The position numbers and the translations under genes were made by a program. 25,494 bases of DNA from a virus. Its lineage: Duplodnaviria > Heunggongvirae > Uroviricota > Caudoviricetes. The stretch lies in IMG/VR virus record IMGVR_UViG_3300045988_104440, positions 1 through 25,494 of that record; one strand, given 5' to 3'. This document shows positions 5,568 through 25,494 of this stretch, piece after piece. The notes under the pieces are model-generated. The model made no database searches. It worked only from the letters and a program-made list of their open reading frames with translations, and had not been told where the DNA came from. Positions within the stretch are counted from its first letter, which is position 1. Every line of letters begins with the position of its first letter.

Positions 5568-6758
5568 TTAATTGCTATTAACCGAAGTGACCAGACTTGC
5601 CAGGTATCTGGAAGTAATACGCTGGCGCAGGGTCAGGTTTTCGAGAGGAGGCACCGGGGTATAGTCGTAGTCGATATACAGTTTTCCGGCCTTGAGGGTT
5701 TCCGCATCGTTGGATTCTTCGCTGAACCAGCAGGTCGCATCCACGATATAGCCGTTTGTTTTCAGCTCACGGAATTTGGCATTGATGCCGTCAACGATGT
5801 CGCGAATCAGCGTTGCGGTGATGGGCTTGTCCACCGCCCACATGTGCGCCTCAGCCATCGTATCGGCCAGCACCTGCGCGGTGCGGGTGTAGTTTTCAAA
5901 GAGGAACAGCGGGTCATCAGAGCAGGTACGGTTACCCCAGAAGCGGAAACCGTCACGGCGAATCAGCGTTGTGACACCTGACTCGTTCAACAGGTCAGCA
6001 TCGGTGCCGGACTCCTGCAAATCCCAGAATACAGATGCGCTGATGCCGGTAACACCGTTCACCCCGACATTGGACAGCGTTTTATGCCAGCCCTGCTCCT
6101 GGTCGATTTTAGCGCGCAGGCCCAGTGCACGGGCAGTGGCATACGCGGTGGCGGTGGTACTGGTGACCGTATCCCATGCGAGGAAATCCGGCCAGATGAC
6201 CATCAGCTCACGCTGGCTGAAATTCTGGCGGTAGGCTTTCACCTCGGAAATAGTCTTACATCCCCATGCGCTGATATACCCGAAAGCACGCAGCTTCTGA
6301 CAGACTGATGCCAGTGCAACAGCCACCTCTTTGGTATCCAGTCCCGGCACGCCGAGAATACGCGGTTTAACACCGGTTACCGACTCCGCCGCCAGCAGGG
6401 CTTTCAGTCCGGTGTACTGACCGTTTTCGTCGGTGGTGCCGATGATATTGGAAACGGTCTGCGCGAGTTTCGTTTCTTCGTCGTCGCCGGTGCCGTCTTC
6501 CACACGTACGACAACGGTGACCGGTTTTGACTGGTCGGCGATGGCCTGCAACGATGCCGCCAGCGTGCCTTTTTTACCAGCCTTTGCAATTGCGCTCTGC
6601 ACATTGGTAATCAGCACCGGTTTATTGAGGGGGAAGGTTTCCGCATCTGCATCGCTGGCCGTGCAGACCATGCCGACAATGGCCGTGGATACGGTGGAAA
6701 TGACGCGGGTGCCGTCGTTAATCTCCAGCACCTGCACGCCGTGATGATAGTCACTCAT
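5568..6758 (-). CDS. FI: Contractile tail sheath protein FI (396 aa)
   Basis: First gene of the FI-FII-E-T-U-D operon; length equals P2 gpFI. Confidence 0.85.
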   Translation of the reverse strand: MSDYHHGVQVLEINDGTRVISTVSTAIVGMVCTASDADAETFPLNKPVLITNVQSAIAKAGKKGTLAASLQAIADQSKPVTVVVRVEDGTGDDEETKLAQTVSNIIGTTDENGQYTGLKALLAAESVTGVKPRILGVPGLDTKEVAVALASVCQKLRAFGYISAWGCKTISEVKAYRQNFSQRELMVIWPDFLAWDTVTSTTATAYATARALGLRAKIDQEQGWHKTLSNVGVNGVTGISASVFWDLQESGTDADLLNESGVTTLIRRDGFRFWGNRTCSDDPLFLFENYTRTAQVLADTMAEAHMWAVDKPITATLIRDIVDGINAKFRELKTNGYIVDATCWFSEESNDAETLKAGKLYIDYDYTPVPPLENLTLRQRITSRYLASLVTSVNSN

Positions 6759-6881
6759 CCGTTTAACTCCGTGGTTAATGGGTGCAACTATTTTCTGTTG
6801 TGCAGAGCATGAGACGCTATTTGACCTGGCTGGTCAGGGGATGAAACAACAGATAAAGAAAATGCGGGCAATTCGCCCGCC

Positions 6882-6899
6882 TGTCCTGATTTGTACACA
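6882..6899 (-). promoter_or_regulatory. Ogr-type late promoter activator site (TGT-N12-ACA) of the FI operon
   Basis: Exact TGT-cctgatttgtac-ACA dyad 124..141 bp upstream of the FI start codon. The P2 late-promoter consensus TGT-N12-ACA is centred near -55. Confidence 0.45.
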
Positions 6900-7130
6900 C
6901 TCATTTTCCGACTGACTATTTAGATAGCCGAAACGCTATCAAATCTGACAGTCTGCTTTGAGCGAGGAGCGGAAGTTCGTAATTGTTCTCACCGTTAAGG
7001 GTCTAGTACTAACATTACCGTATGTTTATCAACGGGGACTACATCAGGCTAAATTCAGTGTGTCACAACCATTAACAAGATTTTCTGTAGCAATCGATAA
7101 CTACTTAAGTTAAAAATAGAAAACTAATCG

Positions 7131-7162
7131 TGTAGCTATAAATCGCTACAATAGACTCGGAG
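7131..7162 (+). promoter_or_regulatory. Candidate promoter/operator and ribosome-binding site for the cargo operon
   Basis: Perfect 6-bp inverted repeat TGTAGC (7131..7136) / GCTACA (7145..7150) flanking a TATAAAT -10-like element (7137..7143). GGAG (7159..7162) lies 6 nt before the ATG at 7169. Confidence 0.3.
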
Positions 7163-7168
7163 TTTGCA

Positions 7169-8395
7169 ATGTCAGATCAGCGTTTTATAAGTAAGATTCA
7201 GGATACTAGGGTTGATTGTTGGTCAGCTTTAGTTGAATTTAATGTTAAAGACTATCTTGGGCTTGCAGAAAAAGCTTACGTTAATAGAGGTGGTATACGA
7301 CATCAACGCGAAGCTCTTAAAACCACAACAGCGAAACGCATTCGCACTAGGCTCGTCGAGGACTTGAGGCGAGGCGCGGTAATCCCTCCTCTGGTCATTG
7401 GTATAGTCGCTGACAATGACGATTGGCAGACAATTGAAGGTATCTCAGAGTCCGAGCAAGTAAAGCAACTCCTTAAAAAATATTATGAAGAATTGTCGAT
7501 TATTGATGGGATGCAACGCACCACAGCTCTTAAAGAAGCATTAGCTTTAGATGAAAACGTAGCCGATCATGTGATTAGGGTAGAAGCCTGGATTGCGAAA
7601 GGCACAGAGAGTTTAATATATCGAATGCTTGTTTTAAACACTGGGCAGGTACCATGGAACCTGAAACAACAACTAGAGGTTGTTTATGCTCCACTTGTGA
7701 AAACTATTAGCCAAAAAGTCAACTTTCGTAGGCTTCTCTCTGCATCGGATAGACGATGGCAAGGAGGGGAGTTTAAAACATACTCGTTGATTGAGTCTTA
7801 TATAGCTTTTGGATTGCGTCGAACTGAGGTCGATACTCAAGAGAGTCTAGCCGATGAGTTTTCAAGGCTAGATATCGCAGAAGCGCTCACCAATAAAAAA
7901 TATGACCATTATTTTTATCGTGTCGTGCAAATGTTAGTTAATTTCGATATTGCGCTATCGATATATAATGAAGTGCAGAATATCGATATTGCAGACCCTT
8001 CTGAGGGTTCCGATAGTCTAGAGGTAGGAATAAAAGCCAGAAAATTAGTAAGAGGCCGAAATATTTTTGATACTCAAGCAGCGCGAGTTGGTTTTATCGT
8101 TGCTTGTGCAGTCAGCATCCTTGGCAGAGTTGGCATGGACAAGGAAGAAGAAGTCAGTGAAGAGAGATGTGCCTTACTAGAGGAATCTTGTGCTGCTCTT
8201 GTTAAAAGGATTACCGCCTTAAATAGAGAAAATTTAGAAGAATTTTTATCGCTAGATGTTTTAGCTGAAAAATTGTCCCGGAGACCGAGTTCAGCAGTTG
8301 GTAGATGGGAGCGGTCATTCTTTGAGGCTGCGTTCCGAGTATTAGTAGAAGAAAACTTTAATATACCCAACATGGAGCCATGCTGGCGGGCATAA
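7169..8395 (+). CDS. Hypothetical protein (408 aa), candidate ParB/DndB-like (DGQHR-type) protein; cargo gene 1
   Basis: Complete ORF with a GGAG ribosome-binding site. HQRE (aa 44-47) followed about 65 aa later by IIDGMQRTTAL (7504..7518 encodes DGMQR), resembling the QR...DGQ(Q/H)R signature of ParB/Srx-fold DndB/DUF262-like proteins. AT-rich, on the strand opposite to the late genes. Confidence 0.6.
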   Translation: MSDQRFISKIQDTRVDCWSALVEFNVKDYLGLAEKAYVNRGGIRHQREALKTTTAKRIRTRLVEDLRRGAVIPPLVIGIVADNDDWQTIEGISESEQVKQLLKKYYEELSIIDGMQRTTALKEALALDENVADHVIRVEAWIAKGTESLIYRMLVLNTGQVPWNLKQQLEVVYAPLVKTISQKVNFRRLLSASDRRWQGGEFKTYSLIESYIAFGLRRTEVDTQESLADEFSRLDIAEALTNKKYDHYFYRVVQMLVNFDIALSIYNEVQNIDIADPSEGSDSLEVGIKARKLVRGRNIFDTQAARVGFIVACAVSILGRVGMDKEEEVSEERCALLEESCAALVKRITALNRENLEEFLSLDVLAEKLSRRPSSAVGRWERSFFEAAFRVLVEENFNIPNMEPCWRA

Positions 8396-8396
8396 T

Positions 8397-9491
8397 ATGT
8401 CTAGAAATAAAATAGAAATGTCGACGGACATTTTTCAAAAAATACATGATTCTGCATCTGCTCAGGACTCTACGTACATAGCCGATAATGAAAAAAGATG
8501 GCTTGCTCGTAAAGATAACGAGGATTTAAACCTTATGATTAATGCAGAGGTTAACGTTCTTATTTTGGGGGCGAAGACGTTCGCCGTCTCTATTAAGAAT
8601 GGTTCTGATAACTACTTCTGTTTTAGCGGTTTAGATATCCCCGAACAACTTCCCGCCAGTCTCACTGAGATTGAGCCCACGCCTGGCATCTTTTCATGCG
8701 TTGTGTTCACCGTCAATCTCCCAGCATTAGCTACAGCGGCTAAGGCTAGAGACATTTTAGAACAGCAATACCTGGGGCAGGAAGGTTACGTCGGGCATGA
8801 ACTTAACGAGATCGCTCCACTCTTTCCAAAACTATACTTTGTTAAGGCTAACGAAAATATAAGCACTACTTTTTTAAATAATTTAGAGCGTGTAGCTGGT
8901 GCCTATATTGCTGCAGGATACGTTAGCCACCCTTTAGAGGTTAATGATAATTTAAAGTTGCGACTACTGTCTCTATTTGAAGTTGGAGCAGAAACCATAC
9001 CGTTTCGTCTACCTCTGCAGGGTCTATTATCTTATAATTGGTCATCGTTATTTTTGGATCTTTATCGATGCTTAGAGCAGTTATATACCGCGCAAAAGTT
9101 GAAAAATTTAGTCACTAAACTCCCATACAAAGGTACTTTGGCAGATCTCGCATATTTACTGGAAGATGAATTGTCATGGAGACCAAAAGAGCAGGATGCA
9201 TTAGCTAGTATACTGGCATGTTCAACTGAAAACACACGTTCGAAAATTCTATCTGCATTCAAACTCAACGTGCCCGAGTTAACCGAGTACTCGCCAAGCA
9301 AGTGCGCAAGTAATATATATAAGCTGAGGAATTCTCATGTTCATTTTCGCCCAGCAATGAAAGCAGAAAATAAACCCACCGAACAGTGGAATGAAATTTT
9401 GATAGCGATGTGTGATGCCGTTGATGACGTTTATGAAGCTCTCGGTGCTGAATTCTTAATAGATAGGTCAAACTTAGAGTCGGTCAGGTAA
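8397..9491 (+). CDS. Hypothetical protein (364 aa), unknown family; cargo gene 2
   Basis: Complete ORF starting 1 nt after the stop of cargo gene 1 (TAA-a-ATG), implying translational coupling. No motif I can assign confidently; a C-terminal R-x4-H (LRNSHVH, 9324..9344) is noted. Confidence 0.55.
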   Translation: MSRNKIEMSTDIFQKIHDSASAQDSTYIADNEKRWLARKDNEDLNLMINAEVNVLILGAKTFAVSIKNGSDNYFCFSGLDIPEQLPASLTEIEPTPGIFSCVVFTVNLPALATAAKARDILEQQYLGQEGYVGHELNEIAPLFPKLYFVKANENISTTFLNNLERVAGAYIAAGYVSHPLEVNDNLKLRLLSLFEVGAETIPFRLPLQGLLSYNWSSLFLDLYRCLEQLYTAQKLKNLVTKLPYKGTLADLAYLLEDELSWRPKEQDALASILACSTENTRSKILSAFKLNVPELTEYSPSKCASNIYKLRNSHVHFRPAMKAENKPTEQWNEILIAMCDAVDDVYEALGAEFLIDRSNLESVR

Positions 9492-9602
9492 TATGCATGA
9501 TTAAAATTGTCATGCGTAACCTAAGCTTATAATTTGTCTATCATATTCATCCTAGATAGATGACTCTATGCTCATCCCCCAGATGAATATATTACAAACC
9601 TT

Positions 9603-9625
9603 AAAAAGCCGTCCTTTAGGACGGC
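9603..9625 (-). terminator. Rho-independent terminator between the convergent cargo operon and gene G
   Basis: Hairpin GCCGTCC-ttta-GGACGGC (9608..9625) preceded on the plus strand by AAAAA (9603..9607), which is a U-tract for minus-strand transcripts. Only a weak T-run follows on the plus strand. Confidence 0.5.
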
Positions 9626-9924
9626 TGTAAACTCTATATTAAACTGGCTCTTACTTTTGCGAACACTGACTTCCACTTTTTATACAATGAAGGTCGAACA
9701 ATAAGAAAAAATCTCCGCTTATATTAACCAAAAGCATCTATTTGTTATCCACGTAATATCTTGCGCGATATAAACATACCAGCAGGTTTCTTAGCATTGA
9801 TCTGCTCCCCATTGATTAAAACAGCGTGATGTTTGCTATGTCCGTTCTTGGCACAGAGCGGACTGTCAAATTAGGCTTTACTCTGTGCCATAGATATGTA
9901 AGCTCCCACCAGAGCTCATACAAC

Positions 9925-10452
9925 TTATTGCGGCATTTCCGGCCATTCAGGATTTGTAGGATCCACACGACTGACCAGAACGCTGTAGCGTTCCCAAGCC
10001 TCCAGCCGTGTGCGCTCCTCCTCTGTTGCCATGTTCAGCCTGACAGCACGCTCTAGCGGCAAAATCACGGATTCAGCATCTGCAAGAAGTCTGGCTTTCC
10101 TGTTTTCTGCCTGCAGTTGCAATTCCTCTGCCGTATAAATTCGTTTGATCACTGTGCCATCCTTAAACATCCAGTTCCCTGAAATGTCCGCCCGTCGGTT
10201 AGCAGTAATATCCGCCACTTCAACAACACTTAATCCATCCGGTCTGATAGCTGTCACATCCTTTTCCACATAGCGGATGATATTATCTTTGTCGTACGCT
10301 ATTTTTATCGTGTCATCAGCAAAATACTTTTGTTCTTCGTACCAGTTCTTACCATCTTCTGAAAAAAACCAGACAACATCAAAATTCTTTGTCAATTGAT
10401 ATTGTTCAACCGTTTTTGGATTACCCGCCGTAATATTTTTTAAATGCTGCAT
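9925..10452 (-). CDS. G: Tail fibre assembly protein G (175 aa)
   Basis: ORF directly downstream of H with a 3-nt gap; length equals P2 gpG. Confidence 0.75.
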
Positions 10453-10455
10453 AAA

Positions 10456-12702
10456 TTATACCTGCGCCACGTTATACCATGTCCCGTTAATGTATTTCTG
10501 CACCGGTCTGTAATATACGCCACCAATGTTATCGGCAGAGTTTGAGCCGGTATCCTGAACAATAATGCCGGTATATACGCAACCTGACGGAGCCTGATGC
10601 GTCCATGTAGTACCATTATTTGCTGGTTTATATGTAGATGCACCGCCCAGTCGCATGTCTCTCACATAACGTGAATCTGACTCAGCTTTGGTGTATGCAC
10701 CAACATCTCCCGCTGATGGTTTTCGTGTTGTGGTATAGAAATCAGACCAGCCAGATTCAAAACCATAACCATCACGGGCTGACCTGTAAGATATACCGCC
10801 ATTTTTATAATTCACACGAAACTGTACAGCCGGGCAGCTACCAGCATTTATATTAAAGTGAAGAATTAATGCAGATGCTCCCCCAATCAGAGCGTTGTAT
10901 GCGCCACTGTCCCAATTCCATCCAACGGCTGTATCACCATTAACCGTATTACCTGTCTGCCGAAGTGCAAATGCACCGACATTTCTGGCATTAAGGGTAA
11001 TATCTCCAGAACCATCAAAGGCAACACCTGCTATTTTCCTCGGTGTTTCGAGTTTTGAGGCTGTTGCAGCATTTCCTGAAAGGTTGGAAATAAATGGATG
11101 TGAGCAGTAATAACCGCGCCCATTTTTAAAATCCAGAATAGCCTGTGCATTCGTGCTTTCTGTGGCAGGATTAGTTGCCCCCCACTTATATGTCGTCTGA
11201 CCGACGACATAATCCTCTGTCGGAACAATAACCGTTAGCCCTTCCTCTGCAAGAATTTGCACAGGGAAAGCTCTGGCTTCAACATAAAAAACACTACATA
11301 CATCATCATCTTTCAGGCTTGTAACAATGGAATGGATTGAACGCTCATTGGTCTGATACGTCCAGAAATAGCCTGCCGCATATGAACCGCGATCAGTCCA
11401 TCCTCCGGGCATAACCATGCCATTAAACTCGCAGTTATTCATTACATAATCGCCGTTATAACAACCAGTGGAAATAACGACGCGGGATGCCATTTCTCCT
11501 GAAAGGCTGGCAGCACGGCGAAAGATAACGGGATACCACTTCCCGGCAACGACATTTGCAGGGGCTGCAAACGAATACTTTCGCATTCCCTTTTTCTTAT
11601 CCACTTCACCTTTGCTGTAAACATTAATGTTACTCAGGAAGCGTTCTTTATCAGGAATATCCGCACCGTTCTTATCTTTCTGAAGACGTTTTTCAGCATT
11701 GTCATTGGCAGACTTCACCGCTTTTGGTGTTGCGGCCAGCGTTTCAGAATCACTGTTGGTGGCGCTACTGAGCTGGACAAGACCTTTTCGCGCTGTGGTG
11801 GCATCCTGTGCAGTGTATTTCCCGTTAGCAAGGTCATACGCTGTCTTAACCGCCTTTGGCGTTGCGGCCAGCGTTTCAGAATCGCTGTTGGTGGCACTAC
11901 TGAGCTGAACAAGGCCTTTTCGCGCGGTGGTGGCGTCCTGCGCGGTGTATTTGCCATTAGCAAGGTCATATGCTGCCTTAACCGCTTTTGGTGTTGCGGC
12001 GAGCGTTTCAGACGCGCTGCTGGTCGCACTACTGAGCTGGACAATACCTTTTCGCGCTGTGGTAGCGTCCTGTGCGGTATATTTCCCGTTAGCAAGGTCA
12101 TACGCGGCCTTTACCGCTTTCGGCGTTGCGGCCAGTGTTTCAGACGTGCTGTTGGTCGCATTGCTTAACTGAGTAAAACCTTTTGCGGTCAGCGAGGCGT
12201 CCGGGTGACGTCGTGACTGTTCATGCTCTGCAATTTTGTCATCAACGTAATCCTGCGTCGCCATCACCGTTGTGGTGTCAATGGTCAGCTCCACTGAGGC
12301 CACACTGCTGACGATGATGACCATGCGACAGGTCTGCGAACGCCCTGAGCCTTCGGCAAGAGCTGGCTTATAACTTTCGGCCATGTTCGCCACGGCAATT
12401 AATGTTCCCGCATCATCGTACAGGCCAAGCTCACGCATCCAGAAACCGCCCACCTCCGGCGGAATAACCAGCTCTGCGATAATATAATTACTGTTTCGTT
12501 TGTCCTGGCTGATTTTGTTCAGCGCATGTCGCCAGACTTCATGGATAAGCCCGGTCTGTCCGGCATCCGGGACAGGCAATTTACCACCGCCATCCCCGAC
12601 GGCCATCGTGGTAATGTTGACCTTCCGCCCTCCCGGCGCGGTTGCCGCTGCCAGCTTTGCTGCACCGGCAGTGGTGATAACGGTTCTGAATTTTGTGCTC
12701 AT
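10456..12702 (-). CDS. H: Tail fibre protein H (748 aa) with internal tandem repeats
   Basis: Long ORF after baseplate genes I/J. Contains four 44-aa repeats with the SETLAATPKAVK(A/T)AYDLANGKYTAQDATTARKG motif. Longer than the 669 aa I recall for P2 gpH. Confidence 0.85.
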   Translation of the reverse strand: MSTKFRTVITTAGAAKLAAATAPGGRKVNITTMAVGDGGGKLPVPDAGQTGLIHEVWRHALNKISQDKRNSNYIIAELVIPPEVGGFWMRELGLYDDAGTLIAVANMAESYKPALAEGSGRSQTCRMVIIVSSVASVELTIDTTTVMATQDYVDDKIAEHEQSRRHPDASLTAKGFTQLSNATNSTSETLAATPKAVKAAYDLANGKYTAQDATTARKGIVQLSSATSSASETLAATPKAVKAAYDLANGKYTAQDATTARKGLVQLSSATNSDSETLAATPKAVKTAYDLANGKYTAQDATTARKGLVQLSSATNSDSETLAATPKAVKSANDNAEKRLQKDKNGADIPDKERFLSNINVYSKGEVDKKKGMRKYSFAAPANVVAGKWYPVIFRRAASLSGEMASRVVISTGCYNGDYVMNNCEFNGMVMPGGWTDRGSYAAGYFWTYQTNERSIHSIVTSLKDDDVCSVFYVEARAFPVQILAEEGLTVIVPTEDYVVGQTTYKWGATNPATESTNAQAILDFKNGRGYYCSHPFISNLSGNAATASKLETPRKIAGVAFDGSGDITLNARNVGAFALRQTGNTVNGDTAVGWNWDSGAYNALIGGASALILHFNINAGSCPAVQFRVNYKNGGISYRSARDGYGFESGWSDFYTTTRKPSAGDVGAYTKAESDSRYVRDMRLGGASTYKPANNGTTWTHQAPSGCVYTGIIVQDTGSNSADNIGGVYYRPVQKYINGTWYNVAQV
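11713..12200 (-). repeat. In-frame 132-bp tandem repeat array (about 3.7 copies) inside H
   Basis: Units begin at 11713, 11845, 11977 and 12109, exactly 132 bp apart; the last copy is more diverged. This explains the spurious ORFs on both strands here. Confidence 0.75.
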
Positions 12703-21567: not shown

Positions 21568-23340
21568 ATGACCATCACCACAGACACCACTCTTTTGCAC
21601 GACCCGCGTCGTCAGGCGGCGCTGCTGTACTGGCAGGGGTTTTCCGTGCCGCAGATTGCCGCCATGTTGCAGATGAAACGCCCGACGGTGCAGAGCTGGA
21701 AACAGCGCGACGGCTGGGACAGCGTTGCCCCCATCAGCCGTGTCGAAATGAGTCTGGAAGCGCGGCTGACCCAGCTCATTATCAAACCGCAGAAAACCGG
21801 CGGTGACTTCAAGGAAATTGACCTGCTCGGACGCCAGATTGAACGACTGGCACGGGTAAACCGCTACAGCCAGACCGGCAACGAGGCAGACCTTAATCCG
21901 AACGTCGCTAACCGCAACAAAGGCGGGCGTCGCAAACCGAAAAAGAATTTTTTCAGCGACGAGGCTATCGAAAAGCTGGAGCAGATTTTCTTTGAGCAGT
22001 CTTTCGACTATCAGTTGCACTGGTATCGCGCCGGGCTTGAGCACCGCATCCGCGATATCCTGAAATCCCGCCAGATTGGCGCGACGTTTTATTTTTCCCG
22101 CGAGGCGCTGCTGCGCGCCCTGAAAACAGGTCATAACCAGATTTTTCTGTCGGCCAGTAAAACGCAGGCGTATGTGTTCCGCGAATACATCATCGCCTTT
22201 GCCCGTCTGGTTGACGTTGACCTGACCGGTGACCCGATTGTCCTGGGCAATAACGGCGCAAAACTGATTTTTCTCGGCACCAACTCCAACACCGCGCAGA
22301 GCCATAACGGCGACCTGTACGTCGACGAGATTTTCTGGATCCCGAATTTTCAGGTGCTGCGTAAGGTGGCATCAGGTATGGCCTCACAGAGTCACCTGCG
22401 ATCGACCTATTTCTCCACCCCGTCCACGCTGGCGCACGACGCCTACCCGTTCTGGTCGGGTGAACTGTTCAACCGGGGACGCGCCAGCGCCGCCGAACGC
22501 GTGGAAATCGACGTCAGTCATAACGCCCTTGCCGGTGGGCTTCTCTGTGCGGACGGCCAGTGGCGGCAGATTGTCACCATTGAGGACGCCCTGAAAGGCG
22601 GCTGCACGCTGTTCGACATTGAGCAGCTCAAACGCGAAAACAGCGCCGACGATTTTAAAAACCTGTTCATGTGTGAATTTGTTGACGACAAGGCATCGGT
22701 GTTCCCGTTCGAGGAGCTGCAACGCTGCATGGTCGACACGCTGGAAGAATGGGAAGACTATGCCCCCTTTGCCGCCAATCCGTTCGGCTCCCGCCCGGTA
22801 TGGATTGGTTACGACCCGTCACACCGTGGCGACAGCGCCGGATGCGTGGTGCTGGCACCGCCGGTGGTGGCCGGTGGCAAATTCAGGATCCTTGAGCGTC
22901 ACCAGTGGAAAGGTATGGACTTTGCCACTCAGGCGGAATCCATCCGCAAACTCACTGAAAAATACAACGTCGAATACATCGGTATTGATGCCACCGGCCT
23001 CGGTGTCGGCGTGTTCCAGCTCGTGCGCTCGTTCTATCCCGCCGCGCGCGATATCCGCTACACGCCGGAAATGAAAACCGCAATGGTGCTCAAGGCAAAA
23101 GACGTTATCCGCCGTGGCTGTCTGGAATATGACGTCAGCGCCACCGACATCACCAGCTCGTTTATGGCTATCCGCAAGACCATGACCAGCAGCGGACGCA
23201 GCGCCACCTATGAGGCCAGCCGCAGCGAGGAAGCCAGCCACGCCGACCTCGCCTGGGCGACCATGCACGCCCTGTTAAATGAGCCACTCACCGCCGGTAT
23301 CAGCACTCCGCTGACATCCACCATTCTGGAGTTTTACTGA
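21568..23340 (+). CDS. P: Terminase large (ATPase) subunit P (590 aa)
   Basis: The 600-aa ORF trimmed to the Met starting MTITTDTT, which has GAGG 5 nt upstream, gives 590 aa, equal to P2 gpP. Divergent from O and followed by Q. Confidence 0.85.
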   Translation: MTITTDTTLLHDPRRQAALLYWQGFSVPQIAAMLQMKRPTVQSWKQRDGWDSVAPISRVEMSLEARLTQLIIKPQKTGGDFKEIDLLGRQIERLARVNRYSQTGNEADLNPNVANRNKGGRRKPKKNFFSDEAIEKLEQIFFEQSFDYQLHWYRAGLEHRIRDILKSRQIGATFYFSREALLRALKTGHNQIFLSASKTQAYVFREYIIAFARLVDVDLTGDPIVLGNNGAKLIFLGTNSNTAQSHNGDLYVDEIFWIPNFQVLRKVASGMASQSHLRSTYFSTPSTLAHDAYPFWSGELFNRGRASAAERVEIDVSHNALAGGLLCADGQWRQIVTIEDALKGGCTLFDIEQLKRENSADDFKNLFMCEFVDDKASVFPFEELQRCMVDTLEEWEDYAPFAANPFGSRPVWIGYDPSHRGDSAGCVVLAPPVVAGGKFRILERHQWKGMDFATQAESIRKLTEKYNVEYIGIDATGLGVGVFQLVRSFYPAARDIRYTPEMKTAMVLKAKDVIRRGCLEYDVSATDITSSFMAIRKTMTSSGRSATYEASRSEEASHADLAWATMHALLNEPLTAGISTPLTSTILEFY

Positions 23341-24374
23341 TGAGCAAGAAAAAAGGGAAAACACCGCGACCAGCGGCAAAAACAATGACCGCCAGCGCCC
23401 CGAAAATGGAGGCATTCACCTTTGGTGAGCCGGTGCCGGTACTCGATCGCCGTGACATTCTGGATTACGTCGAGTGCATCAGTAACGGCAGATGGTATGA
23501 GCCACCGGTCAGCTTTACCGGTCTGGCAAAAAGCCTGCGTGCTGCCGTGCATCACAGCTCCCCGATTTACGTCAAACGTAATATTCTGGCCTCGACATTT
23601 ATCCCGCATCCGTGGCTTTCCCAGCAGGATTTCAGCCGCTTTGTGCTGGATTTTCTGGTGTTCGGTAATGCGTTTCTGGAAAAGCGTTACAGCACCACCG
23701 GTAAGGTCATCAGACTGGAAACCTCACCGGCAAAATATACCCGCCGTGGTGTGGAAGAAGATATTTACTGGTGGGTGCCGTCCTTCAACGAGCCAACACC
23801 TTTCACGCCCGGCTCCGTGTTTCACCTGCTGGAGCCGGATATCAATCAGGAGCTGTACGGCCTGCCGGAATATCTCAGCGCCCTTAACTCTGCCTGGCTG
23901 AATGAATCAGCCACGCTGTTCCGCCGCAAGTATTACGAAAACGGCGCACATGCCGGATACATCATGTACGTCACCGATGCCGTGCAGGATCGCAACGATA
24001 TCGAAATGCTCCGCGAAAACATGGTGAAGTCGAAAGGCCGCAACAACTTTAAAAACCTGTTTCTCTATGCCCCACAGGGGAAAGCCGACGGCATTAAAAT
24101 TATCCCGCTCAGTGAAGTGGCAACGAAGGACGATTTTTTTAATATCAAAAAAGCCAGCGCCGCTGACCTGCTGGACGCGCACCGCATCCCCTTTCAGTTG
24201 ATGGGCGGCAAGCCGGAGAACGTCGGGTCGCTGGGCGATATTGAGAAAGTGGCAAAGGTCTTTGTCCGCAATGAGCTTATCCCGCTACAGGACAGGATCC
24301 GCGAGATAAACGGCTGGCTCGGCCAGGAAGTCATCCGCTTTAAAAACTACTCACTGGACACTGACAACGGCTGA
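23340..24374 (+). CDS. Q: Portal protein Q (344 aa)
   Basis: Its start overlaps the P stop (TGATG); length equals P2 gpQ. It is the last gene before cos. Confidence 0.85.
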   Translation: MSKKKGKTPRPAAKTMTASAPKMEAFTFGEPVPVLDRRDILDYVECISNGRWYEPPVSFTGLAKSLRAAVHHSSPIYVKRNILASTFIPHPWLSQQDFSRFVLDFLVFGNAFLEKRYSTTGKVIRLETSPAKYTRRGVEEDIYWWVPSFNEPTPFTPGSVFHLLEPDINQELYGLPEYLSALNSAWLNESATLFRRKYYENGAHAGYIMYVTDAVQDRNDIEMLRENMVKSKGRNNFKNLFLYAPQGKADGIKIIPLSEVATKDDFFNIKKASAADLLDAHRIPFQLMGGKPENVGSLGDIEKVAKVFVRNELIPLQDRIREINGWLGQEVIRFKNYSLDTDNG

Positions 24375-24893: not shown

Positions 24894-25494
24894 ATGGAAC
24901 TTAAATTAAAGGATATAACCAGCTATAAGAAAGATAGCTTCACAACTCTTAATCTCTCAAAAAAAATCAATATACTTTATGGTCACAACGGTTGTGGAAA
25001 ATCAACCATATCTAATTATTTCTATAATCCAAATAACACGGACTACAAAGAATGCGAATGTCCTTTCATAGATACTTTTCGCCTATTGGTTTATAATACT
25101 AAGTTTATTGAGGATAATTTTTATAATGCAAAAGAGCAAAAAGGAGTATTCACTTTAAGTAAGGAAAATGCTGACATTGAAAAAGAATTATTGGAAAAAG
25201 AAGCTATAAGACAAGACCTACTTACAAAATACAAAGATAAAAAAAACGTTATTGAGCGTTTAATTAACGATAAAAACAATAAAGAAAATGAATATATTGA
25301 TTTAATATGGAATAAAGCAGAACCTTTTAGATCATCTGACTTAAAGAACTTGATGAAAGGTCAGTTAGGAAGCAAGAGATCATTTTATGAGCAAGTTAAA
25401 AAAGCCCCTCAAACCACTGACGTTAACATCGAGTCACTTGCTCAAGAATATAGTATTCTTTTAAAGAATAAAGATAAATTCACTGCAGATCGGA
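24894..25494 (+). CDS. P-loop ATPase (ABC/SMC-like), 5' part only; runs off the window
   Basis: ATG at 24894 with GAGG 6 nt upstream and an open frame to the window edge (200 codons). Walker A motif GHNGCGKST (24981..25007) is followed by a long charged, coiled-coil-like region. AT-rich. This ORF is not in the supplied track because it has no stop inside the window. Confidence 0.55.
   Translation, partial: MELKLKDITSYKKDSFTTLNLSKKINILYGHNGCGKSTISNYFYNPNNTDYKECECPFIDTFRLLVYNTKFIEDNFYNAKEQKGVFTLSKENADIEKELLEKEAIRQDLLTKYKDKKNVIERLINDKNNKENEYIDLIWNKAEPFRSSDLKNLMKGQLGSKRSFYEQVKKAPQTTDVNIESLAQEYSILLKNKDKFTADR

Follow-up and report, generated by a model that had tools for sequence, protein, structure and literature searches.

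The window analyzed here, the whole 25,494-nucleotide stretch of the Caudoviricetes record IMGVR_UViG_3300045988_104440, is the late region of a P2-like prophage and carries, in a cargo island of low GC (guanine plus cytosine) content, a pair of adjoining genes, dzbA and dzbB. By homology the pair is best assigned to Dazbog, with a DzbB that has diverged; it would add a member to a known system at a known hotspot and is not a new kind of effector pair. The second protein, DzbB, is predicted to end in a HEPN-like helical domain with an invariant R-N-x3-H motif. Our preferred reading, to which we give a probability of roughly 60%, is that DzbA, a DUF262 protein, is the sensor and DzbB a HEPN RNase effector of abortive infection, the two forming a divergent Dazbog system within the Z/fun cargo. 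Precedents exist for the type of system, for the hotspot and for the DUF262-plus-HEPN logic; the HEPN assignment of DzbB appears to be the new part, within the literature searched. The features on which the argument draws are as follows.

7169 to 8395, plus strand: dzbA, which opens the Dazbog pair and encodes a DUF262/ParB-like protein of 408 residues
7505 to 7519, plus strand: DGMQR motif of DzbA (residues 113 to 117), of the DUF262 "DGQQR" type
8397 to 9491, plus strand: the dzbB-like gene, encoding 364 residues (ATG at 8397, TAA at 9489 to 9491)
8397 to 8996, plus strand: N-terminal α/β domain of DzbB (residues 1 to 200), the faster-evolving half, whose fold matches nothing known
9006 to 9458, plus strand: C-terminal HEPN-like helical domain of DzbB (residues 204 to 354)
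9063 to 9077, plus strand: Y223-R224-C-L-E227, in the first long helix of the HEPN-like domain, candidate accessory active-site residues
9177 to 9191, plus strand: W261-R-P-K-E265, a motif in the segment between core helices 2 and 3
9327 to 9344, plus strand: R311-N312-S-H-V-H316, the predicted HEPN R-x4-H catalytic motif, within LRNSHVH (encoded by 9324 to 9344)

Family assignment of the gene pair

Dazbog (DzbA-DzbB) has been shown by experiment in other bacteria to be a two-gene defense system (Millman et al. 2022, Stokar-Avihail et al. 2022), and its mechanism is called unknown or unclear in reviews from 2025 to 2026. DzbA of the window matches the PADLOC DzbA profile over residues 6 to 407, nearly its full length (E = 2.8e-50), as well as phrog_27603 (E = 2.4e-122), and gives matches below threshold to Pfam GmrSD_N (DUF262, 1.8e-4), DndB and DGQHR. 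The DGMQR motif is identical in all five DzbA partners checked at other loci. For the 364-residue protein, the PADLOC DzbB profile gives E = 0.0012 and 16.4 bits, with residues 219 to 318 aligned to positions 208 to 307 of the 341 in the profile. The same profile reaches E ≤ 0.01 in 29 of 36 relatives and E ≤ 1e-3 in 55 of 71, the strongest match having E = 5e-14; these matches are always collinear, typically placing residues ∼200 to 320 on profile positions ∼190 to 310 of 341 and sometimes starting from profile position 112. Lengths are comparable (345 to 365 residues in the family versus 341 profile positions), and a profile search of 1.84 billion representatives at E ≤ 1e-3 returned 797 clusters; of the ones listed, most are 340 to 375 residues long and matched end to end.

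The arrangement of the two genes also recurs. In the window they lie on the same strand with a spacer of 1 nucleotide between the dzbA stop (TAA, 8393 to 8395) and the dzbB ATG at 8397, and since dzbB starts one base past that stop the two are probably translationally coupled. We examined nine other loci, six on metagenomic or genomic contigs and three on IMG/VR contigs, including a cyanobacterium-like contig, Cereibacter and Rathayibacter. A DzbA gene stands directly upstream of the DzbB gene, on the same strand, at all nine; its identity was verified by profile or phmmer at eight, and the spacing at the five checked ranged from −1 to 21 nucleotides. Based on the strong DzbA match, the collinearity of the DzbB matches, the similar lengths and the upstream DzbA gene at nine of nine loci, the 364-residue protein is likely homologous to DzbB and the pair is assigned, from these sequence comparisons, as a divergent Dazbog.

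This assignment changes the picture given by the sequence-only reading, an earlier inspection of the letters and their translations without database searches, which had found no assignable family for the 364-residue protein and had proposed the pair, with its completely unknown partner of a ParB-like protein, as a candidate for a new effector. The collinear DzbB matches in 55 of 71 relatives supply a family, and the E value of 2.8e-50 for DzbA ties the pair to a system that has already been validated. What had been read directly from the DNA was confirmed: the open reading frame and its LRNSHVH are real, and the exact protein is present on 31 E. coli contigs, each time under the name "hypothetical protein". 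The protein reaches the threshold of no Pfam or NCBIfam family and nothing significant in PHROGs, and the Walker, HNH, PD-(D/E)xK, TIR and SIR2 signatures reported as absent did not turn up in the Pfam and NCBIfam searches either.

Like reference Dazbog, the pair forms an operon of two genes, in which a DzbA of DUF262/ParB-like type precedes a DzbB of ∼350 residues, and it lies in a defense or cargo hotspot. It differs in that this DzbB branch scores 16 bits (this protein) and at most ∼50 bits (the family) against the PADLOC profile, in that its N-terminal domain is mostly undetectable by that profile, and in its host and carrier, E. coli and a P2 prophage as opposed to Bacillus or Chromobacterium. 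Because the DzbB match is weak and covers only ∼100 residues, Dazbog pairs of this branch could escape automated annotation. Dazbog may therefore be undercounted: a large branch matches the reference DzbB profile weakly and over part of its length, and one such weakly matching pair travels in E. coli at the cargo hotspot of a P2 prophage.

Structure and conservation of the C-terminal domain of DzbB

AlphaFold2, run with a 36-sequence alignment, predicted for DzbB an α/β region at residues ∼1 to 200 and an all-helical region at residues 204 to 354 (mean predicted local distance difference test score, pLDDT, of 89.4 and predicted template modeling score of 0.86). When the C-terminal domain was modeled separately with 92 sequences, the pLDDT was 93.1. 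As in the HEPN superfamily, the four helices of the predicted core run up and down, and an insert separates helices 2 and 3. The helix formed by residues 300 to 315 has R311 and N312 at its C-terminal end, and H316 opens the loop that follows, a placement that agrees with the position of the motif in HEPN domains (PMC3710099). The residue following the arginine is typically N, D or H in HEPN domains (PMC3710099), and the polar N312 fits.

Comparison of the modeled fold against 48,164 chains gave as its top eight matches 1wwp, 8xdj, 1jog, 4nqf, 5yep, 2jpu, 7ae2 and AbiA (8oz7), with scores of 5.7 to 6.1 and ∼100 residues aligned at 2.9 to 4.0 Å root mean square deviation (rmsd). Seven of these are HEPN proteins, the family of 2jpu not being confirmed. 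Lower matches comprised 2hsb, AbiV, Las1, Csm6, Csx1, sacsin, YutE, TT1696, LsoA, Roquin, MtlR, RnlA and Cas13h, and together with the top eight these account for roughly 25 of the top 60. Sequence profiles point weakly, and in one direction, to the same superfamily: HEPN_Apea (Pfam PF18739) matches 16 of 71 family members weakly and the family consensus at E = 4e-4 (21.3 bits, profile positions 36 to 122 of 136), and single weak matches were obtained to RiboL-PSP-HEPN, MAE_28990, DUF3644, CARF_HEPN and Cas13a. A search with the C-terminal domain profile at E ≤ 10, aimed at annotated HEPN families, returned fragments of the DzbB family only.

The motif was the one candidate feature that the sequence-only reading had put forward, as a fit to the R-x4-6-H pattern of HEPN RNases, with the caution that so short a pattern occurs by chance. 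The caution was justified, since R-x4-6-H, which is found once in DzbB, occurs at least once in 44% of composition-preserving shuffles, and the pattern alone is therefore not significant. Its conservation speaks more clearly. Across 36 homologues, down to 22% identity, R311, N312, V315, H316 and R318 are invariant; in 71 homologues, whose mean column identity is 24%, neither R311 nor H316 varies, and N312 and V315 are each retained in 97%; and R311 and H316 are again invariant in the 92-sequence alignment. The shorter spacing R-x2-H (R311/H314) was considered as the motif and dropped; as H314 is variable, kept in only 23 of the 36 homologues, the motif is R-N-x3-H. The suggestion of a HEPN R-x4-H has thus gained support from conservation and from the HEPN-like fold, and the structure prediction that had been recommended as a check produced the four-helix bundle, with the motif where a helix of the model ends and the next loop begins.

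Elsewhere in the 71 sequences, Y223 and E227 are invariant and R224 is kept in 92%; of the motif that lies between helices 2 and 3, E265 never varies and W261 is kept in 97%. F13 and Y308 are also invariant, and W331 exceeds 90%. The HEPN superfamily criterion includes an upstream acidic residue near the motif, typically as E-x3-[KR] in helix 2; neither of the invariant glutamates, E227 and E265, lies in such a context. Taking the predicted model and the conservation together, we consider it very probable that the C-terminal domain of DzbB is a HEPN domain. A composite active site formed in a dimer and metal-independent RNase activity would be predicted to follow for DzbB.

Two HEPN groups resemble DzbB in particular. 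In RnlA the catalytic residues are R255-x2-E258 and R318-x4-H323, and R224-x2-E227 and R311-x4-H316 of DzbB recall this pattern, a likeness at the level of sequence. Like RnlA, DzbB is predicted to place a C-terminal HEPN domain after N-terminal α/β structure in a total of ∼350 residues, and the RnlA/LsoA and HEPN-MNT toxins are, as proposed for DzbB, phage-defense HEPN RNases in which a partner protein and the mode of dimerization control activity; the partner of DzbB is, however, a DUF262 protein and not RnlB or MNT. Homology to RnlA was rejected: when the family profile was compared by hhalign with RnlA of E. coli K-12, the probability was 0.1%, a weakly informative result since the template was a single sequence, and Foldseek matches to RnlA had probabilities of at most 0.04. 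The Apea-like HEPN domains provide the best recurrent profile signal for DzbB and have an R-N-x3-H of the same form, whereas the N-terminal domain of DzbB is predicted to be α/β and ApeA-NTD1 is described as mostly β and ∼300 residues long.

A survey from 2024 of 18 HEPN-containing systems omits Dazbog, and we found no link between Dazbog and HEPN in the literature searched, although a mention in other resources is possible. The chances seem to us evenly balanced that DzbB and its family of ∼800 clusters constitute a HEPN RNase family undescribed as such in that literature.

Proposed mechanism and alternatives

In Bacillus, Dazbog is protective, and cultures collapse or arrest at high multiplicity of infection, behavior of the abortive-infection type. 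The system turns toxic upon expression of the cytosine methylase of phage SPR, escape phages have lost methylation, and defense is lost when the DUF262 gene is deleted or mutated. By analogy with these distant homologues, the pair in the window may have anti-phage activity, an abortive-infection phenotype and a methylase trigger. E. coli itself carries out both Dam and Dcm methylation, so neither Dam methylation nor 5-methylcytosine at Dcm sites can by itself be the trigger of this branch, which would have to recognize something else.

For the window's pair we propose that DzbA, with its DUF262/ParB-like module of NTPase type, would act as the sensor and would hold DzbB inactive in a complex. 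Upon infection, the HEPN domains would be freed or re-paired as an active dimer, which would cut RNA without metal ions, halting translation and aborting the infection. Three parts of this are inferred: that DzbB cuts RNA, that it is the effector, and what the sensor recognizes in E. coli. At the same distant loci DzbB scores 45 to 107 bits and DzbA ∼306 bits, so that DzbB evolves much faster, and its fastest-changing part is the N-terminal domain; such fast evolution fits a subunit exposed to phage countermeasures. If the proposal is true, Dazbog would be a system in which DUF262 sensing of foreign or modified DNA activates a HEPN effector that cleaves RNA, docking or sensing would fall to the fast-evolving N-terminal domain of DzbB, and toxicity of DzbA without DzbB would indicate mutual inhibition of the two subunits. 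An invariant R-N-x3-H in a HEPN-like fold gives Dazbog a testable catalytic hypothesis, with RNA cleavage as the readout.

The proposed mechanism would parallel that of PD-T4-2 (Vassallo et al. 2022), a two-gene defense system of E. coli that the literature describes as a DUF262 protein and a HEPN protein, the same sensor-plus-RNase logic as proposed for DzbA-DzbB. Membership of PD-T4-2 was rejected, as no PADLOC model of that system matched DzbA or DzbB at E ≤ 1, and the resemblance would be one of analogy or, at best, very distant. If the HEPN reading holds, Dazbog would be the second design of a DUF262 sensor plus HEPN beside PD-T4-2. In the type IV restriction systems GmrSD, BrxU and SspE, DUF262 senses modified DNA, and NTP hydrolysis activates a fused DUF1524/HNH DNase. 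DzbA likewise has a DUF262 module with a DGQQR-type motif, but the candidate effector here is a separate HEPN protein and not a fused DNase. Searches with Pfam and PADLOC profiles found no DUF1524/GmrSD_C or HNH match in DzbA or DzbB, and with no DUF1524 in either protein, restriction of the GmrSD type was rejected.

Several points weigh against the preferred reading. The functional data on Dazbog all come from distant Bacillus homologues. The 364-residue protein matches the DzbB profile weakly, over ∼100 residues, and even in relatives the similarity to that profile is largely restricted to the C-terminal domain. The 21.3 bits of the HEPN_Apea match lie below the curated cut-off of 24.4, and single members reach E = 0.0022 or worse. 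A Foldseek search of the PDB with the full-length model returned nothing (best E = 0.46), and profile searches of PDB sequences with the full-length protein and the C-terminal domain found no HEPN chain, only chance matches to YajQ and Dally-like. The remote-homology check suggested alongside the structure prediction gave weak, recurring HEPN_Apea matches that score below the cut-off, and no HEPN chain in the PDB. A further difficulty is the dzbB deletion of Millman et al., which could not be transformed, "possibly due to toxicity", and was listed with three antitoxin deletions. A simple model in which DzbB is the toxin does not predict this result, which suggests that DzbA is toxic alone and is restrained by DzbB.

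We therefore considered the converse assignment, in which toxicity and the effector role fall to DzbA, as an NTPase or nuclease of ParB/DUF262-like type acting on DNA or nucleotides, and DzbB is its inhibitor, the infection sensor, or both, with a HEPN-like domain that binds a ligand or RNA or has a secondary activity only. The untransformable deletion and its place beside the three antitoxin deletions favor such roles, the rapid evolution of DzbB and above all of its N-terminal domain would suit a sensor or regulator facing the phage, and some HEPN domains are indeed non-catalytic binding modules (PMC3710099). Non-catalytic HEPN domains, however, typically lose Rx4-6H (PMC3710099), whereas DzbB keeps the arginine and histidine invariant and the asparagine at 97% in the 71 homologues, and DzbA has no DUF1524/HNH nuclease domain, the part that serves as effector in GmrSD, BrxU and SspE. 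On balance we regard this assignment as unlikely, if a serious contender; with DzbB as the RNase effector, the deletion toxicity may be read as mutual control or inhibition of the subunits within the complex. It is improbable that the C-terminal domain is a generic helical bundle whose R-N-x3-H serves another hydrolase activity, DNA binding or structure, a view to which the missing Foldseek and PDB matches lend themselves and from which the HEPN proteins among the top fold matches lead away. Least credible is that the pair forms a phage accessory module for the biology of P2 itself (replication, partition or host takeover) and has no part in defense. DzbA is ParB-like, as such a module might be, but the pair sits in the P2 Z/fun locus, known for its variable cargo, which in other prophages consists of unrelated genes such as RES, HNH and FRG; homologous pairs also occur outside phages, on plasmids and in chromosomal islands beside methylase, HNH, GmrSD_C and toxin genes; and the DzbB family is on only three IMG/VR contigs.

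Genomic setting of the pair

The open reading frame map of the window includes the sheath gene FI (5568 to 6758), the tail-fiber genes G and H (9925 to 12702) and baseplate genes, among others. The pair occupies the following element between them.

6759 to 9924, no strand assigned: cargo island of low GC, flanked by FI (5568 to 6758, minus strand) and the tail-fiber assembly gene G (9925 to 10452, minus strand)

The island, with its two plus-strand genes, has a GC content of 40 to 42%, versus 55 to 60% in the backbone, and its position is the P2 Z/fun variable locus, a known hotspot of prophage cargo. Matches to its flanks were found in P2, Wphi and other phages and in the P2-EC30 "Z-region" record; by megablast, 1049 of 5426 complete E. 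coli genomes have P2-like prophages with matching flanks, and there the same site holds other cargo (FRG, RES, HNH, SMEK, DUF3606 and others). The dzbA-dzbB cargo was found in none of the 5,426, where megablast of the island retrieved the P2 flanks only, and tblastn of DzbA or DzbB against 50,697 phage genomes gave no match. The island has no third gene, and between 6700 and 10000, where an RNA antitoxin or third component was sought, there was no tandem repeat, Rfam match or meaningful repeat.

Distant relatives occur in other settings. DzbB-like genes of 34 to 37% identity are found on the plasmids NC_008388.1, NZ_CP136700.1 and NZ_CP045379.1 (15 to 17 kb, conjugative, Roseobacter and Sulfitobacter). 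On the Cereibacter contig and the Rathayibacter chromosome, distant dzbAB genes adjoin genes for methyltransferases (MethyltransfD12, DNA_methylase), HNH_2/MTaX1, GmrSD_C and BrnT toxins, a defense-island or prophage context. A setting reminiscent of this one was described in 2013 for "ParB nuclease + methylase + HEPN" operons, and the ParB-HEPN operons noted then echo the pairing of DUF262 with HEPN.

Two elements flank the genes of the pair. An imperfect palindrome at 7131 to 7150, TGTAGCGATTTATAGCTACA as read on the minus strand, lies ∼20 nucleotides 5' of the dzbA start and overlaps the −10-like sequences TATAAA and TACAAT; it may be part of an operator or promoter, and no clear sigma-70 promoter was scored on the plus strand. 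Downstream, at 9607 to 9626, is a GC-rich hairpin, AGCCGTCC-TTTA-GGACGGCT, preceded on the plus strand by an A-run, that is, followed by a T-run on the minus strand. It looks like the terminator of the H-G tail-fiber operon and may also end dzbAB transcription; it was not among the results of a terminator scan.

The low GC extends past the island proper, at 0.41 to 0.45 from 9500 to 11500, across gene G and the 3' part of H, which suggests that G and the host-range end of H were also acquired or exchanged. The tail fiber H (10456 to 12702, minus strand) contains three near-identical repeats of ∼45 residues, …SETLAATPKAVKxAYDLANGKYTAQDATTARKGxVQLSSAT…, seen in its translation. At the far end of the window, an open reading frame on the plus strand (24894 to 25494, ATG at 24894) continues beyond the window end and encodes the Walker A motif GHNGCGKST. 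It matches PADLOC PDC-S06, a candidate defense family, at E = 5.9e-57 over the N-terminal 195 of about 727 residues. Since this reading frame sits in a second low-GC stretch, just after a portal-like gene (23340 to 24374), a second cargo locus of this P2-like prophage appears to be loaded as well.
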